This document shows positions 1 to 5,003 of a stretch of 5,003 nucleotides of DNA, piece after piece. Positions within the stretch are counted from its first letter, which is position 1. Each line of letters begins with the position of its first letter. Under the pieces are notes generated by a model that did no database searches, was not told the origin of the DNA, and worked only from the letters and a program-made list of their open reading frames with translations. Origin of the DNA: a virus (Duplodnaviria > Heunggongvirae > Uroviricota > Caudoviricetes). The DNA lies in the IMG/VR virus record IMGVR_UViG_2681813273_000013; one strand, written 5' to 3'. The position numbers were made by a program, and so were the translations under genes.

Positions 1-173
1 TGTCAGTTATCATCTTCGGTTACGGTTATCGGCAGAACGCCCTGCCGCTGACAAGAGCTTATTTGCCTGACCAATCTACTCCACATGATAGATAACTATC
101 ATTTATAGCATTTGGCTTATTAGCCTTTATTTTTCATTGAGTTGCAAACAATAAGCTCGTCAAAAACAGTAAA

Positions 174-240
174 ATTAACTACACCATTAACTACACCGTT
201 CCACGAACAATATCGAACAACCACGAACAAAGATCAACAC
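174..240. repeat. Tandem direct repeats: 2 x 12 bp ATTAACTACACC (174-185, 186-197), then 10-bp-phased CGAACAA units (204-210, 214-220, 224-230; degenerate TCAACAC at 234-240)
   Basis: Read directly from sequence; exact 10-bp periodicity; lies in a region with no convincing ORF. Confidence 0.6.
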
Positions 241-420
241 GCTTTAATCGTTATCATTTTCCGGCTATCAGTCATGAAACCAGTTATCGGCATCAGGCCC
301 ACCAGCGTGAAGCGTTTTTCATTTTTCGCGGGTATAAAAAATCGATGGGGCTGGCAGTCCGGAAGACGTCAGGGTACAGAGATTTGACCCGCCCCTCCCT
401 GTGCATGCGCACAATAAGTA

Positions 421-446
421 ACCGAAGGCGGAATTCCGCCCTCGGT
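421..446. repeat. 26-bp near-perfect palindrome ACCGAAGGCGGAATTCCGCCCTCGGT centred on GAATTC (one mismatched pair)
   Basis: Reverse complement matches itself except A426/C441. No T-run on either side, so not a canonical intrinsic terminator. Confidence 0.6.
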
Positions 447-570
447 ACTCACATATGAGAAACGATATTTCTTCCACCGATACCCTTTATTTGGGTATCG
501 CGAGTAAGCCCCAAAATCTGGGTGTTACTCTTACTACCCAAACTACGGGTAGTTTCCGTAGTTTCATAGT

Positions 571-592
571 CGAGTTGCAGATCTGCAACTCG
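571..592. repeat. 22-bp perfect palindrome CGAGTTGCAGATCTGCAACTCG, part of a cluster of stem-loops spanning 478-645
   Basis: Exact self-complementarity. Flanked by hairpins at 478-500 (8-bp stem CGATACCC/GGGTATCG), 543-561 (CTACGG/CCGTAG), 606-621 (AGTGCA/TGCACT) and 624-645 (CGGTAA/TTACCG). Confidence 0.6.
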
Positions 593-639
593 CCACCAGT
601 TGCTAAGTGCATTTTTGCACTTTCGGTAATATCAACCAG

Positions 640-921
640 TTACCGCCGTAAGTGCTCCGGCTTCCTCCACTGGTAAGTATTTTTCGCGCTCTCCCTCCGT
701 TGTTGAGAACGGCGACGGTATGCCAGCAACTCAAGAACTCTGGTTCGTATGTTGCGCATATCCACGCCGTTAAGCTCAATACCGTCACGGCGCATTACCT
801 CATCCACCACACGCGCATAATTTTCAGCGGTCACGCTGTCCGGTTGCATGGCCTGTTCGTCAACCTGCTGGCTGATTCCGGCGACGCGGCGGATTAATCC
901 CAGTATTTCGGCTTCTGTCAT
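640..921 (-). CDS. Hypothetical protein, 93 aa, function unknown
   Basis: ATG start with a G-rich RBS-like stretch (GGGGG) a few nt upstream; composition more protein-like than the overlapping plus-strand ORF 652-897; same strand as neighbouring genes. No recognisable motif. Confidence 0.4.
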   Translation of the reverse strand: MTEAEILGLIRRVAGISQQVDEQAMQPDSVTAENYARVVDEVMRRDGIELNGVDMRNIRTRVLELLAYRRRSQQRRESAKNTYQWRKPEHLRR

Positions 922-977: not shown

Positions 978-1057
978 TCACGCTAAAAGATGTTGAACAA
1001 AAATTAACCACAATCATCATCTTTTTTGCATCAACTACATTAAAAACAACAGGTTAC

Positions 1058-1151
1058 ACACATGATGATGATGACGATAAAACCACAAAAATGCGCTTTT
1101 TTCCGCGCCGACCCGCCCCGTGGACAGGCCCCCCCCACCAGGAGGACCCGC
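1058..1151. repeat. Copy A of a ~95-bp non-coding repeat with GC-rich core CCCGCCCCGTGGACAGGCC (1112-1130)
   Basis: Aligns with 3636-3727 at roughly 85% identity with small indels; contains a purine/pyrimidine trinucleotide tract, a GCGC-T6CC-GCGC hairpin, the 19-nt identical core and CCACCAGGAG. The indels break any shared reading frame. Confidence 0.8.
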
Positions 1152-1175
1152 AAAAAAGGCGGCTGCTGCCGCCTT
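1152..1175 (-). terminator. Rho-independent terminator for the capsid gene (minus strand)
   Basis: Minus strand reads AAGGCGGC-agca-GCCGCCTT followed by a T-run, beginning 4 nt after the stop codon at 1180-1182. Confidence 0.75.
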
Positions 1176-1179
1176 GTTC

Positions 1180-1938
1180 TCATGAAGAAATCGCTCTGAC
1201 CATTCCGCGATAATCCAGAGCAGCAACGCCAGCATCAATGCGGACCTTCCAGGCCACACCGTCAACAATAAAGCCCTCCTGCTGCTCAAGGTAAGGCTCG
1301 TCATTACCGTCAAGATAAGCCACCTCAATTGTGTCCGTTCCCTGTGCTGAAAGCATGTACCATTGCTTATCACTGACTTCATCAAGGCGGGGATCGACAA
1401 TAATATCCAGTTGTTTGTGGTACGGGTTATATGAACCACTGTTTGTATCGGCACCGAAAGGCGTGGTTGAGTTAACCATTTGCAACGCTCTGTCTTCCAG
1501 AGCCGCAGGAACAAGAAGGAATTTTGGCACAATATTCAGCACCTCACCGTTTTCATCCCTCTGTGTGCGCATTGCACGGCGTGCAATGCCAAGCCCTGTA
1601 GTGCTGACTCCGTTATCAATATCATTTCCGTGTTTTTTGCTGAACAGCGGTATACCGTCAGAAAGCTTTGTGTTTCCTGTCAGCACCAGATGAACCAGAT
1701 TACCCACCGTTCTGGCGGCTGCTCGCCCCATTGCCTGTGGGATAACTGTTAACTGATTCAGGTCATCGTTAATAATCGCCTGTCGGGTAATGCTGAAAAT
1801 ATTTCCGTAAGTTGCCAGCGCGATTGGTTCGCCACGGTCACTGGTGGTGATGTATTTATATTCCGCGCCTTCCGGCACTTTGTTTAATGTAGAGAAGCCA
1901 TTCAGGCCAACACGACGTGCCTCATGGAAGTTTGACAA
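1180..1938 (-). CDS. Major capsid protein, HK97-fold-like, C-terminal ~250 aa; probably lacks its own N-terminus
   Basis: Position directly after a prohead protease; segments such as ATYGNIFSITRQAIINDD resemble my recollection of the HK97 gp5 pattern (S-x-R-Q-x-hydrophobic-x-DD). The only in-frame start is a TTG with a weak RBS, and 252 aa is short for this fold. Confidence 0.65.
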   Translation of the reverse strand: MSNFHEARRVGLNGFSTLNKVPEGAEYKYITTSDRGEPIALATYGNIFSITRQAIINDDLNQLTVIPQAMGRAAARTVGNLVHLVLTGNTKLSDGIPLFSKKHGNDIDNGVSTTGLGIARRAMRTQRDENGEVLNIVPKFLLVPAALEDRALQMVNSTTPFGADTNSGSYNPYHKQLDIIVDPRLDEVSDKQWYMLSAQGTDTIEVAYLDGNDEPYLEQQEGFIVDGVAWKVRIDAGVAALDYRGMVRAISS

Positions 1939-3047
1939 TGAACCTTTTTTCGTCCACTGGCGGAACGTTTCGCCGCTGTGTTCACGGATTTTTCAGCACC
2001 ACCAGCAAGGATATAAGTAAAATCGCTGCTGCTGTGGGTGAATGCCGCGTTTACTATCTGCGAGCGTGTGCTGTAGCTGCCTGTGCTTATGCCGCGATGG
2101 GTTAATGATGCCTGTGCCATATCGAAAAGGCTCATCATGGCGTAAGGGTTGCCGCGTTCTGCCTGTTCATGTCCCAGACGCGCATTAAGCCCCTGACGCA
2201 TTGCATCGCCGGTTATGTTGCCGTTATCCGTGTACGCGTAGTAAAGATTTGCGGGGGTGGTTTTGTTTGTCGGTGTCGATTCTTTACCCATAGTGAGTAA
2301 AAGGCGTTCGCGTGCATCCTCAACGCTACAGCCTGAATCAGCAAGACAACTTATAGCCAGGTCGTTATATCTTCCATTGAACGTGCCAAACAATTCACGT
2401 ATCCCGTTGAGTCGTTCCTGTTCTCCGCTGCCAGTTTTCTGGCTGATCATGCTTTTAATATTTTCCGGCATATTCGAAAAATCTCCGATTCGTTTTGATT
2501 CAATTCTGGCCATTGCTGTAATCGCGGGTATAACCTCATCTGCGAAGCCATTAGCCTTACACTCATTGCCATCCATCCAGGTTTCCGCCTCCATCATGGC
2601 GGTGATTTCCTGTTTGCTCCTGCCCGTTCTTCCGGCGTAGGTTTCCGCCATCGTGTCGCCCAGCTTGTCCATCAGGTCAGCAAAGCGGCGAACGTCGCCC
2701 GACACTCCGGCAGTAACACCACGGGGGGCATGTATCATCATCATCGCGTTTTCAGGCATAACGATGTGATCGCCACACATGGCAATAAACGAGGCCATAG
2801 AAGCCGCCATGCCTTCAATGTGTACAATTTTCTTTGCCGGATGATTTTTCAGGGCGTTATAGATAGCCAGCCCTTCAAAGATGTCGCCACCAGGTGAATG
2901 GATGCGAAGATGGATTTCAGGCACATTACCGCACGCGTTGATCTCGTCAGTAAGTGCCGATGCTTTTACACCGTACCCGCCGATCTCGTCATAAATGCGT
3001 ACATGTACAACATCAGCCATAGCCTTAATGGAAAACCATGTTTTCAT
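1902..3047 (-). CDS. ClpP-family (S14) prohead serine protease, with a C-terminal extension that looks like scaffold plus capsid N-terminal region
   Basis: Motifs HSPGGDIFEG (ClpP NSPGG), GMAASMASF (catalytic Ser in GxAASM) and MMMIHAPRG (catalytic His) in the N-terminal ~190 aa. ATG start overlaps the upstream ORF stop as ATGA. Terminates 36 nt into the capsid ORF, in a different frame. Confidence 0.85.
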   Translation of the reverse strand: MKTWFSIKAMADVVHVRIYDEIGGYGVKASALTDEINACGNVPEIHLRIHSPGGDIFEGLAIYNALKNHPAKKIVHIEGMAASMASFIAMCGDHIVMPENAMMMIHAPRGVTAGVSGDVRRFADLMDKLGDTMAETYAGRTGRSKQEITAMMEAETWMDGNECKANGFADEVIPAITAMARIESKRIGDFSNMPENIKSMISQKTGSGEQERLNGIRELFGTFNGRYNDLAISCLADSGCSVEDARERLLLTMGKESTPTNKTTPANLYYAYTDNGNITGDAMRQGLNARLGHEQAERGNPYAMMSLFDMAQASLTHRGISTGSYSTRSQIVNAAFTHSSSDFTYILAGGAEKSVNTAAKRSASGRKKVHCQTSMRHVVLA

Positions 3048-3238
3048 AGCCAGGCTCCTAACGTTGCCCTGTACCAGTATTCAACCGCGCTTCTCGCAAT
3101 CTGCCCTTTCGTGGGTACTGGCATTCCAGGGTGATGACTTTTAATGAACTGCTGATAGCGTTCGAGCTTCTCCATAGTTCCGGCGTCTATGTGCACTGTT
3201 GCACTTTTATCCGGTTTTCTGCTGTTGTTCTCTGGCAT
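3044..3238 (-). CDS. Small hypothetical protein, 64 aa, possibly a ribbon-helix-helix DNA-binding protein
   Basis: Start chosen at the third in-frame ATG (3238) because GGAGG lies 7 nt upstream; the track ORF begins at 3271 with no RBS. Stop overlaps the protease start. Predicted strand-helix-helix pattern (TVHIDAG / MEKLERYQQFIK / KGQIARSAVEYWYRA) is inference only. Confidence 0.45.
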   Translation of the reverse strand: MPENNSRKPDKSATVHIDAGTMEKLERYQQFIKSHHPGMPVPTKGQIARSAVEYWYRATLGAWL

Positions 3239-3313
3239 AAGTCTGCCTCCGTTATGATTAACGGGCATCATTATTGATCGATAAAACTGGTAAATAAATC
3301 ATTTTCTATCTAA

Positions 3314-3339
3314 AAATCAGATTATGTGTTTTCTGATTT
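3314..3339. promoter_or_regulatory. Inverted repeat AAATCAGA-N10-TCTGATTT, about 80 nt upstream of the 64-aa ORF start; candidate operator
   Basis: 8-bp perfect arms read from sequence in an AT-rich region; a weak possible minus-strand promoter (ATGACA, ~16 nt, TAATCT) overlaps it. Confidence 0.3.
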
Positions 3340-3379
3340 TTGTCATACCAGCAAAAGAATTGACTAATTATTGCCACGC

Positions 3380-3626
3380 NNNNNNNNNNNNNNNNNNNNN
3401 NNNNNNNNNNNNNNNNNNNNNNNNNNNNNNNNNNNNNNNNNNNNNNNNNNNNNNNNNNNNNNNNNNNNNNNNNNNNNNNNNNNNNNNNNNNNNNNNNNNN
3501 NNNNNNNNNNNNNNNNNNNNNNNNNNNNNNNNNNNNNNNNNNNNNNNNNNNNNNNNNNNNNNNNNNNNNNNNNNNNNNNNNNNNNNNNNNNNNNNNNNNN
3601 NNNNNNNNNNNNNNNNNNNNNNNNNN
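3380..3626. other. Assembly gap, 247 N
   Basis: Run of n characters. ORFs in the track that cross it (3324-3644, 3364-3714, 3371-3655) are artefacts. Confidence 1.
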
Positions 3627-3635
3627 AACTTAAAC

Positions 3636-3727
3636 TGGTGGTGATGGTGACATAAAAATCAAAAAATACGCCTTTTTCCGCGAACCGCCCGCCCCGTGGA
3701 CAGGCCACCCCCACCAGGAGTACCTAC
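3636..3727. repeat. Copy B of the ~95-bp non-coding repeat (core at 3688-3706)
   Basis: Aligns with 1058-1151 at roughly 85% identity. The left end abuts the N gap, so the copy may be truncated by the assembly. Confidence 0.8.
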
Positions 3728-3750
3728 AAAAAAGCCGGATTGCTCCGGCT
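3728..3750 (-). terminator. Rho-independent terminator for the SSB-like gene (minus strand)
   Basis: Minus strand reads AGCCGGA-gcaa-TCCGGCT followed by T6, 15 nt after the stop at 3766-3768. Confidence 0.75.
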
Positions 3751-3765
3751 TCTGTCACTCGTTGC

Positions 3766-4188
3766 TTAAAACGGTATGTTATCCCCGTACGGATCATCAT
3801 TCCCCGCCTGTTGTTTGGCCCTGTTCAGTGCATCAGTGGCCTGCCCCTGTTGGCCTTTTTTACCGCCCGGTCGCGCCGTTCTGGCACTGATTACACTGTC
3901 TGCGATAACCTGCCAGCCCTGCCGCGTTTCTCCGTTCTGGCCTGTCCACTGGCTTACCTGCATGTTACCCGCCACGCTCACCAGCTCGCCTTTCTGGTGC
4001 TTTGCCAGTGCGTCAGCCTGTCTGCCAAACGCCAGGACGGATAACCATATCGTCGCCGTTCCGTCATCTGCCTGGCTGCACGGCAGGGGAACCGCCATAC
4101 TCGCCATCGTCATTTGCGTACCCTTGCTGGTGGTCTTTAACTGCGGGTCAGCCACCAGCCGCCCGTAAGCCGCTATCTGTGCTGTCAT
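3766..4188 (-). CDS. ssb: Single-stranded DNA-binding protein (SSB family), 140 aa
   Basis: Pattern G-R-L-x-x-D-P at the N-terminus, W...FG...KG...V..G....W.G..R in the middle, Gly/Gln-rich linker, and an acidic C-terminal tail DDPYGDNIPF resembling the canonical DDDIPF. Start ATG overlaps the upstream ORF stop as ATGA. Confidence 0.75.
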   Translation of the reverse strand: MTAQIAAYGRLVADPQLKTTSKGTQMTMASMAVPLPCSQADDGTATIWLSVLAFGRQADALAKHQKGELVSVAGNMQVSQWTGQNGETRQGWQVIADSVISARTARPGGKKGQQGQATDALNRAKQQAGNDDPYGDNIPF

Positions 4189-4430
4189 GCTGTCTGCTCT
4201 CCGGTTTTAACGTTGATGGTTGTCACCTGTTCCGCTTCGGCAATCTCCCGTTCTGTCAGCGTGGCAAAGTTTGCCGCCGTCGTGGTCATGAATGCGCTTA
4301 TCAGTTCGGGATGTGCTTTCGCGTATCCTTCCCCGGCGTTGCGGTCGATGATTTTTATCGCCACCCTCAGCCAGTGTTCTGTCAAATCAAGGGCGTGAGA
4401 TTGTGGTTTTTTGGCGTGCTTCGTTGTCAC
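4185..4430 (-). CDS. Hypothetical protein, 81 aa, translationally coupled to the SSB-like gene
   Basis: GTG start with GAGG 8 nt upstream; stop overlaps the ssb start; protein-like composition; no recognisable motif. Confidence 0.45.
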   Translation of the reverse strand: MTTKHAKKPQSHALDLTEHWLRVAIKIIDRNAGEGYAKAHPELISAFMTTTAANFATLTEREIAEAEQVTTINVKTGEQTA

Positions 4431-4474
4431 AGGCTTTACCTCACAGCAATAAAATAAAATTTTTGCATTTTAAC

Positions 4475-4702
4475 CCTTCACCTGTTCACCTTTTGCAATT
4501 TTCCCTTTTTATTCATGATGTTAATGGGTTAACAGTTTCACAAAAACTATTCACCAACTGTTCACCACTGTTCACCCTTAAAGCTCAATAAAGAATCAAA
4601 AAGGTGAACAGTGAATAGTTTGGTGAACAGTTCATAAATAACTGTTCACCCTATAATATACTGATATAAAAGACATTTATTGCAGGGTGAACAGTGGTGA
4701 AC
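4475..4702. repeat. Iteron array of octamer TGTTCACC / GGTGAACA; resembles the P4 alpha-binding type I iterons of ori/crr
   Basis: Perfect TGTTCACC at 4482, 4558, 4568, 4642; perfect GGTGAACA at 4602, 4621, 4685, 4695; degenerate copies at 4475 (CTTCACC), 4547 (TATTCACC), 4610 (GTGAATAG). Seven copies extend to the 10-mer ACTGTTCACC. AT-rich context. The identity with P4 iterons is from memory of the literature, not a search. Confidence 0.75.
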
Positions 4703-4733
4703 AGTTATTCCATAAGTTTAATTTTTTCCATCG

Positions 4734-5003
4734 TCATTTGTGACCTATTGCACATGATGGCATCCAGTCTTCTGAATCCTCTGTCAGGGTCACATTTGAA
4801 CGCAAACCGTGCTTCGTTTTCCGTTTCATATACTCCCTGCCATATTCCGCCATTGCCCCCGGCATATCTTTACCGAAGCGCGTCAGTGTTACAGGTTTAC
4901 CGAATCCGTGTGCCCTCATATATGCCAGATAGGCGTGATAAAGATACCTGCGCGGACTGAACGGAATAATTTCGGCATTACCCACTAACAGACCATCACA
5001 CAT
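4734..5003 (-). CDS. 3' end of a gene truncated by the window edge; candidate C-terminal origin-binding domain of a P4 alpha-like primase/helicase
   Basis: Open frame runs to the window edge (the ATG at 5001-5003 may be internal); composition more protein-like than the overlapping plus ORF 4694-4960. The alpha assignment is inferred only from the iterons just downstream, mirroring the P4 alpha-then-crr layout. Confidence 0.4.
   Translation of the reverse strand: MCDGLLVGNAEIIPFSPRRYLYHAYLAYMRAHGFGKPVTLTRFGKDMPGAMAEYGREYMKRKTKHGLRSNVTLTEDSEDWMPSCAIGHK

Follow-up and report, generated by a model that had tools for sequence, protein, structure and literature searches.

The stretch of DNA analysed here (the window) comprises 5,003 nt of the virus record IMGVR_UViG_2681813273_000013 (Caudoviricetes). 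All of its genes lie on the minus strand, and read in that direction they form a replication module (the end of a primase gene, a field of iterons, an 81-aa gene and ssb, which encodes a single-stranded DNA-binding protein), a run of N, and a capsid module (a 64-aa gene, a gene for a prohead protease and major capsid protein that is split in two, and a 93-aa gene), beyond which come an attachment (att) core and host chromosome (Table 1). An earlier interpretation made from the letters alone (the sequence-only reading) had remarked on P4-type replication signals and an ssb operon directly upstream of co-oriented capsid genes and had proposed a capsid-forming satellite, a mosaic and decaying prophage or a scaffolding mis-join. 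We are highly confident that the element is a phage-inducible chromosomal island (PICI) of the EcCI family, decayed in Shigella sonnei. We regard the full explanation as very likely; it takes the window for the right half (~5 kb) of a Gram-negative PICI at the cspD-clpS site and includes the mechanism proposed below. The observation that prompted the earlier remark is real and ordinary in kind: the satellite family to which this decayed copy belongs has been described, and such a layout is the norm in it.

Outside the run of N, S. sonnei contigs are identical to the window but for one mismatch. The att core at the right-hand boundary, ATGATAGTTAT, has a second copy at the integrase (int) end of the island in E. 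coli O111:H8 7-58 72A (L001), in L002 and in EcCIIHE3034 (L008). EcCIIHE3034 and EcCI18098 are islands of 10.5-10.8 kb that occupy the cspD-clpS site with the same att core (Table S1, PMC6092414); from att core to att core the L001 island measures ~10.2 kb, versus 44-47 kb for the phages, in agreement with the size expected of a PICI, about one quarter to one third of its helper. A megablast search found at least 80% of the window in 71 complete E. coli genomes (~91% identity); the two of them that were inspected, L001 and L002, have its gene order and its site.

In the intact E. coli relatives the order is int, alpA, an icd-like gene, a DUF4222 gene, the primase gene, ori, the 81-aa gene, ssb, cos, the 64-aa gene, the protease-capsid fusion gene, a further cos and the 93-aa gene. 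Examples of intact islands are those of E. coli O111:H8 7-58 72A (NZ_CP077499 3783303-3793580) and of strain 2017.17.03CC. The S. sonnei island runs from int through IS1, alpA, small genes, DUF4222, the N-terminal part of the primase gene, a further insertion sequence (IS), the C-terminal primase fragment, the 81-aa gene, ssb, the 64-aa gene, protease and capsid to the 93-aa gene. Two S. sonnei loci, L091 and L092, were examined with 10 kb on either side. The island is flanked there by macB, cspD and yljB on the left and by clpS, clpA, infA, aat and cydCD on the right. Both loci carry a 412-aa integrase and, outside the window, a 69-aa gene of the Phage_AlpA family (PF05930); alpA of L001 matched phrog_2790 (E=1.6e-17). 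Portal, terminase, tail and lysis genes are absent from the island and its 10-kb flanks in the annotation of L091 and L092. The sequence-only reading was thus right that neither portal nor terminase separates the replication genes from the capsid genes, and none lies nearby. The integrase and att repeats that it had suggested looking for are in place with only host genes beyond them, and the flanks of an ordinary prophage, with portal and terminase, which it had named as the outcome that would tell against it, were not seen within those 10 kb.

Table 1. Coordinates of the features in the 5,003-nt window
Feature	Position	Strand	Remarks
Host chromosome flank, upstream of clpS	1..91	.	matches 5425 of 5426 complete E. 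coli genomes; clpS directly after in L001, L002 and L091
att core ATGATAGTTAT, right-hand island boundary	92..102	-	exact match
93-aa conserved PICI gene	921..640	-	phrog_1561, E=2e-53
Predicted cos copy A, after capsid-gene terminator	1054..1175	-	terminator 1175..1152; cosQ GGGTCCT 1149..1143; cosN core 1119..1103
cosB-like flank of cos copy A	1082 to ~1054	-	phage homology goes on to ~955
Fusion gene for ClpP-like prohead protease, scaffold and HK97-fold major capsid protein (pseudogene)	1180..3047	-	two open reading frames, 3047..1902 (protease) and 1938..1180 (capsid)
64-aa gene, overlaps protease start	3238..3044	-	phrog_4934, E=2e-42
Run of 247 N	3380..3626	.	stands for 188 nt of intergenic DNA: rest of the cosB-like region of copy B, and hairpins
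Predicted cos copy B, after ssb terminator	3627..3751	-	terminator 3751..3728; degenerate cosQ AGGTACT 3725..3719; cosN core 3695..3678
cosB-like flank of cos copy B	3658..3635	-	continues into the run of N
ssb, single-stranded DNA-binding protein, 140 aa	4188..3766	-	Pfam SSB, E=3.9e-16
81-aa gene, co-transcribed with ssb	4430..4185	-	phrog_1231, E=8.5e-50; stop overlaps ssb start
Replication origin, 8 exact TGTTCACC iterons in inverted groups	4483..4703	.	four per strand
P4-alpha-type primase/helicase, C-terminal fragment, origin-binding part	5003..4734	-	Pox_D5 (Pfam), E=2.4e-11

The two sides of the run of N belong together. In five independent assemblies of S. sonnei (L091, L092, L094, L095 and L096), including CP000038.1, which we take to be the complete chromosome of S. 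sonnei Ss046, one and the same 188-nt stretch joins identical gap flanks. Because five independent assemblies join both sides in the same way, the suspected mis-join is refuted. The 188-nt filler contains no called gene and gave no match in Rfam.

Paired cos sites of two phage types

The window carries a 122-nt direct repeat (1054-1175 and 3630-3751, 71% identity), and each copy stands directly after a terminator on the minus strand. In copy A, the arrangement GCGGGTCCT...CCACGGGGCGG..CGCGG aligns with lambda cosQ (GGGTCCT) and the cosN region TTACGGGGCGGCGACCTCGCGG at lambda spacing. Searches against 50,697 phage records matched copy A to Stx2_95, Stx2_112808, VT1-Sakai and their relatives (92% identity over ~100 nt, E=8e-34) and copy B to phages 1720a-02 and CP-1639 (88% identity, E=2e-28). 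The matched phage stretch lies between the Rz/endopeptidase gene and terS and is either non-coding or overlaps only a small hypothetical open reading frame (ORF). The interval between Rz and terS is the canonical position of cos in lambdoid phages.

With the full S. sonnei sequence, copy A matches Stx2_95 over 200 nt at 88.5% identity, beginning at cosQ and stopping 42 nt short of terS. Copy B, once the S. sonnei sequence is put in place of the run of N, matches 1720a-02 over 161 nt at 90.7% identity, up to 39 nt before terS. Since the homology reaches to ~40 nt before terS, both copies include the whole TerS-binding side. It is mostly in this TerS-binding flank that copies A and B diverge from one another. 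Between the two phage groups, TerS is nearly identical over its C-terminal ~100 residues and varies mainly in the N-terminal ~60. By analogy with lambda TerS (PMC9026076), those N-terminal residues would be the DNA-binding domain. Judged by sequence, the 122-nt repeat is a pair of lambda-type cos sites, apparently copied from different subgroups of lambdoid and Shiga toxin (Stx) phages. The cosN cores of the island read GGGCGGGTCGGCGCGG in copy A and GGGCGGGCGGTTCGCGG in copy B, versus GGGCGGGCGGCGCGG in both Stx2_95 and 1720a-02, and the core also varies in VT1-Sakai and in copy B of the E. coli island. Structured RNA, of the kind of the P4 CI/seqA-like immunity element, was considered for the repeat and rejected: Rfam returned nothing, and the alignment to lambda and phage cos explains the repeat.

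PICIs with several cos sites are already known. Two functional cos sites have been shown experimentally in EcCICFT073 (PMC6092414), and the reason for two has been posed as an open question (PMC6739421). In EcCIIHE3034 we observed three cos-like sites, at 7556(+), 9997(+) and 10881(-) of L008. One is of Stx/mEp460 type and follows directly after ssb; the other two are lambda-type, have the exact core GGGCGGCGACCT and flank the Rpp gene, one of them inverted. In EcCICFT073, a lambda-like cosQ and cosN are combined with a PICI-specific cosB that is read by Rpp-TerS, whereas the present island copies the whole helper cos. It is this mimicry of the helper's full cos, without Rpp, that is specific here.

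The protease-capsid fusion gene

The upstream ORF of the split gene matched CLP_protease (E=3.7e-33) and the downstream ORF Phage_capsid_4 (E=1.5e-49). The sequence-only reading had taken them for two separate genes; the protease and the HK97-like capsid are indeed both present, but they are the halves of a single fusion gene, and the capsid ORF lies outside the interval 3044-5003 in which that reading had placed the capsid genes. The intact E. coli allele encodes 629 aa and matched NCBIfam NF045540 with 892 bits (cutoff 475) as well as phrog_133. Alignment to the E. coli alleles of L001 and L002 revealed that 13 bp are missing near window position 1984, a loss that shifts the frame and splits the gene, and that a further 9 bp are deleted in frame near its 3' end. 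The frameshift is not a sequencing error: it results from a 13-bp deletion, and the exact product is found in thousands of S. sonnei records (the 381-aa frameshifted protein occurs in 2904 blocks of the assembly collection, CP000038.1 among them).

Other parts of the S. sonnei copy are damaged as well. In L091 and L092 an IS encoding HTH_Tnp_1 and rve domains sits inside the primase gene, between its two parts and upstream of the window. IS1 lies between int and alpA, the IS in the primase gene is of the IS3 family, and an IS21-family element stands beside the 93-aa gene in Ss046 only; the island thus shows three independent IS insertions (L091 2603-3300 and 6893-8049; L092 12459-14428). This copy of the island has decayed and is probably no longer mobile. 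Of the earlier suggestion of a mosaic, decaying prophage, the decay holds (in the primase, beside int and in the capsid gene), and the mosaic prophage does not. Within the fusion gene itself, comparison with L001 16367-18256 revealed a mosaic, in which the half for protease and scaffold is 92-100% identical in DNA and the capsid half 73-89%; this pattern suggests a recombination breakpoint at the boundary between scaffold and capsid, near the 13-bp deletion. Between the capsid halves of S. sonnei and E. coli O111, dN/dS is 0.12, which shows that strong purifying selection acted on the gene before the deletion arose in S. sonnei.

The island fusion protein is ~52% identical to those of Stx, mEp460 and cdtI phages, and its best phage matches are in the phages whose cos is copied. 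Homologs were scanned with one genome per species, which gave 77 distinct loci, and 48 near-full-length matches were examined. All six homologs with at least 57% identity stand in a satellite context (two in Kluyvera and one each in Yersinia artesiana, Buttiauxella, Moellerella and Rahnella victoriana), and most of these six loci also have alpA, int or a P4-type primase gene upstream. Homologs with at most 53% identity and a readable upstream flank are instead preceded by a portal gene, and mostly by terminase too. The satellite alleles form one clade in a neighbour-joining tree, with a mean identity of 71% among themselves and 57% to the phage alleles. They have in common a deletion of ~25-35 residues just after the protease domain, which removes a Pro/Ala-rich linker and the next helix, and they retain the catalytic Ser (AASMAS) and His (MMIH) motifs. 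In Kluyvera genomosp. 1 and R. victoriana the satellite is inserted in the helper's own fusion gene at ~codons 98-112, with phage codons 1 to ~110 upstream of int and those from ~98 onward downstream of the satellite. These insertions directly identify phages with this head type as partners.

Each of the six satellite-context loci has a homolog of the 64-aa gene directly upstream of the fusion gene, and no phage-context locus does; the 64-aa gene is specific to satellites that carry the fusion gene. The AlphaFold2 model of its product, built from a homolog search that found only 6 close E. coli sequences, has a moderate predicted local distance difference test score (pLDDT 70.6) and consists of two helices behind an extended N-terminus. 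The predicted fold is compatible with ribbon-helix-helix, and a DNA-binding role would be a guess. Foldseek of the model against the PDB gave no match, and the 68-aa ORF in the same position of EcCIIHE3034, considered as a relative, showed no similarity.

These data indicate, from the sequences compared, that the island capsid gene belongs to a satellite lineage and is not debris. What the product does for the satellite is a separate matter. One explanation is that the gene serves mainly in anti-phage interference, as a decoy that poisons the helper's head assembly, and is not a building block of particles. PICIs commonly interfere with their helpers, the capsid homolog Ccm of SaPIbov5 blocks phage reproduction (cited in PMC6092414), and the deletion of linker and scaffold residues in the satellite alleles could make mixed assemblies aberrant. 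We nevertheless consider this explanation unlikely, in that strong purifying selection on the catalytic motifs and the whole capsid domain fits a fully functional head protein; interference and particle building do not, moreover, exclude each other. A far less probable explanation is that the element is the remnant of an ordinary lambdoid prophage whose portal, terminase, tail and lysis genes were deleted, with the capsid gene as debris and the layout accidental. Such an origin would account for the IS insertions and frameshift of the S. sonnei copy, and both the cos sites and the fusion gene are derived from phages. However, the ~10-kb att-bounded architecture recurs intact in E. coli, and the arrangement of int, alpA, in part a primase gene, the 64-aa gene and the fusion gene recurs in Kluyvera, Yersinia, Buttiauxella, Moellerella and Rahnella. 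A fusion clade found only in satellites, with its shared deletion and the low dN/dS, does not fit debris, and the genes for integrase, AlpA and P4-type primase are those of a satellite and not of a lambdoid phage.

Replication module, class membership and neighbouring features

The primase gene runs past the window edge and leaves its last 89 codons inside. This edge ORF, which had been read as the end of an origin-binding gene, aligns with residues ~690-771 of P4 alpha at 51% identity, and the island primase is 48-51% identical to P4 alpha. Directly 3' of it lies the iteron field, like crr in P4, where crr directly follows alpha, as the sequence-only reading had stated. Eight exact copies of TGTTCACC were observed versus 0.28 expected per window, and none of 200 shuffled sequences reached eight; in the P4 annotation the same octamer appears as 'ori type 1 repeat' in both ori and crr. 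The claim of P4-type replication signals is therefore borne out by the iterons and the primase alike. Tested PICI origins likewise sit directly 3' of the primase gene (PMC6092414). Rfam microRNA matches at 4469-4707 were rejected as an artefact of the inverted iterons. The ssb product matched TIGR00621 above its cutoff (61.5 bits). Some E. coli relatives have two additions between ssb and cos copy B, a gene for a PerC-family regulator and a small ORF (L002 18772-19177); perC is among the accessory genes of PICIs (Table S1, PMC6092414).

By the core components used in SatelliteFinder, the island has four of the five of a PICI (integrase, regulator, primase-replicase and capsid morphogenesis) and lacks terS. 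Islands with four of five core components are its 'Type B', which makes up 74% of its PICI calls (PMC10085698). With helper terS, tblastn gave no match in the E. coli-type islands, and neither terS nor Rpp is annotated in L001, L002, L091 or L092. Gram-negative PICIs and helper-embedded satellites (HES) are organised in four zones, namely Integration, Bro, Replication (primase, SSB and mapped ori) and Late, the last consisting of captured helper late genes (10.1101/2022.07.18.500453). Replication genes followed by a late zone of captured capsid genes are the norm in this PICI family (PMC6092414; 10.1101/2022.07.18.500453). The junction that had attracted attention is the boundary between Replication and Late in this four-zone plan.

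The closest known island is compared first. With EcCIIHE3034 the element shares the cspD-clpS site, the att core and the order int, alpA, YlcI, icd-like gene, DUF4222, primase, ori, small ORF, ssb, cos, small ORF, capsid gene or genes and 93-aa gene, and with both EcCIIHE3034 and EcCICFT073 it shares a length of ~10-11 kb and the possession of more than one cos. The late zones differ: that of EcCIIHE3034 and EcCICFT073 comprises genes for a lambda E-like capsid protein, a D-like decoration protein and Rpp (annotated as 'terminase small subunit'), whereas the island has the fusion gene and no Rpp, and the small ORF upstream of the capsid gene in EcCIIHE3034 is unrelated to the 64-aa gene. Among helper-embedded satellites, the Kluyvera (L011) and Rahnella (L078) relatives have the configuration of HES group C:CLP_protease:110 (10.1101/2022.07.18.500453). 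They share with the island the satellite-clade fusion gene and the 64-aa gene, and in Kluyvera a downstream cos; unlike that group, the window island is chromosomal, at cspD-clpS and outside any helper late gene, and its integrase is 40-41% identical to those of L011 and L078. SaPIbov5 offers a functional parallel in that it has the helper's cos in place of a terS of its own and a homolog of the helper's HK97-fold capsid protein, Ccm (PMC6092414). It is, however, a Gram-positive element of unrelated sequence, Ccm is a capsid homolog alone, and the functional evidence is that of SaPIbov5 only.

That the islands are capsid-forming PICIs (cfPICIs), making and filling their own capsids and stealing only tails, is most improbable. 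Like cfPICIs of the EcCIEDL933 type, the island has its own major capsid protein and maturation protease (here in one gene with the scaffold), and the left half with int, alpA and primase is common to cfPICIs and PICIs. What sets cfPICIs apart from PICIs, namely terL, head-tail adaptor, head-tail connector and portal (PMC10085698), is missing. Searches by tblastn with helper terL, W and portal found nothing in the satellite parts of any locus, by annotation neither the island nor the 10 kb to each side of it has a head-tail adaptor, connector or HNH gene, there is no terS, and ~10 kb is the whole of the island. The sequence-only reading was right to see a phage satellite in place of a normal phage, and its cfPICI-like option falls. 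Equally improbable is a variant of a P4-like satellite with sid, psu and delta exchanged for a capsid gene: although the island shares with P4 the alpha-type primase/helicase, an identical iteron octamer downstream of the primase gene, an AlpA/Vis-like regulator (45% identity) and a tyrosine integrase (23%), tblastn found no homolog of sid, delta, psu, epsilon or the cI region (at E<=1e-3 only alpha, int and the ORF88/AlpA-like gene of P4 matched), Rfam scans for C4/isrK-type or CI-type immunity RNA, covering the window and the entire S. sonnei island, returned only spurious microRNA matches on the iteron palindromes, the helpers implied by the cos sites and by the capsid gene, a gene that is absent from P4, are lambdoid siphoviruses and not P2-like phages, and the gene order is that of EcCI PICIs.

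The remaining small genes fit the EcCI family. EcCIIHE3034 has a small gene at the position of the 81-aa gene, and the 93-aa protein is 78% identical to the product of its last gene. The 93-aa protein gave no Pfam, NCBIfam or PDB match; mEp460 gp06, whose gene follows the phage fusion gene, was considered as a relative of it and showed no similarity. PDB sequence searches with the 93-aa, 64-aa and 81-aa proteins returned chance-level matches only.

Toward the right-hand boundary, window 103-640 is non-coding and variable among relatives, the E. coli matches beginning at 285, 399 or 426; it includes a 33-nt imperfect inverted repeat (481-551) and a terminator-like palindrome with a perfect stem (421-446). 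In one draft assembly (L094 4423-4801; GCA_900160285.1 FUCV01000007.1), the 93-aa gene is followed not by clpS but by the 3' end of terL, W, portal, a 675-aa phage-type fusion gene and tail genes. The island in L094 carries the identical frameshifted product, and its similarity to the window stops near the palindromic terminator at 421-446 (junction ~426). The junction could be a rearrangement beside a candidate helper prophage or an assembly chimera. One S. sonnei-type assembly has, beyond clpS, a 787-nt second copy of the right end of the island that is 99% identical and has another 93-aa gene (L095 5362-6148). In E. coli O111:H8 7-58 72A (L001 1-11900), a second integrase-bearing island lies beyond clpA and contains a gene for a large AAA-domain protein, a pseudogene for a TOTE conflict-system primase, a YfjI/DUF3987 gene and IS1.

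Proposed mechanism and implications

In the mechanism that we propose for intact E. coli relatives, a lambdoid helper with the fusion-type head would induce the island, leading to its excision. The P4-alpha-type primase/helicase, as its homology suggests, would then bind the TGTTCACC iterons and replicate the island with the aid of its own SSB. Helper TerS/TerL would recognise the matching cos, of either the Stx2_95/VT1-Sakai or the 1720a-02/CP-1639 type, and package island concatemers; with two cos types, the island could be mobilised by two helper subgroups and would not need the Rpp adaptor of EcCICFT073. The fusion polyprotein would most likely co-assemble with the helper capsid protein on the helper portal or replace it, so as to build or resize heads for the small genome, to disturb helper assembly, or both, a role for which Ccm of SaPIbov5 is the precedent. 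Packaging through cos by these helper groups is, on the sequence similarities, probable. A capsid-size role for the fusion gene we regard as somewhat less likely than not. The same caution applies to the suggestion that the intact relatives may represent a distinct PICI hijacking variant, which would dispense with Rpp and terS, build satellite-sized heads on the helper portal from a polyprotein with a shortened linker, and count Shiga-toxin-converting phages among its helpers.

Several points weigh against this mechanism. Induction, transfer and capsid formation are, for this island type, predictions from sequence, and the cos ends of phages of the Stx2_95 and 1720a-02 types are deduced from their position and their similarity to lambda. 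The cosN cores of the S. sonnei island differ in length by 1-2 nt from the phage cores, a difference that may prevent cutting at its cos sites. If a single terminase recognised both cos sites, which have the same orientation and lie 2.6 kb from each other, sub-genomic cuts could result. In EcCICFT073, deletion of the capsid or the decoration gene left interference with lambda unrelieved, and full-size heads were packaged (PMC6092414); a capsid-resizing role is accordingly not established for E. coli PICIs.

The architecture that first drew attention, a P4-type replicon directly upstream of a capsid gene, is normal for Gram-negative PICIs and neither an artefact nor an odd prophage, and with this a false alarm is removed. 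What is modestly new is the combination of cos sites of two helper types without Rpp, together with a satellite-specific clade of capsid polyproteins linked to Stx-type lambdoid phages. The S. sonnei copy illustrates the decay of a satellite in an IS-rich pathogen that is reducing its genome. Paired cos sites that each fit a different helper subgroup provide a directly testable explanation of multi-cos PICIs, and in the capsid polyproteins of the satellite-only clade there is a natural system in which to ask how a change in scaffold or linker alters capsid size. Because the candidate helpers include Stx1- and Stx2-converting phages, intact islands in Shiga toxin-producing E. coli O111 and in other E. 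coli could affect the yield of Stx phages and gene transfer.

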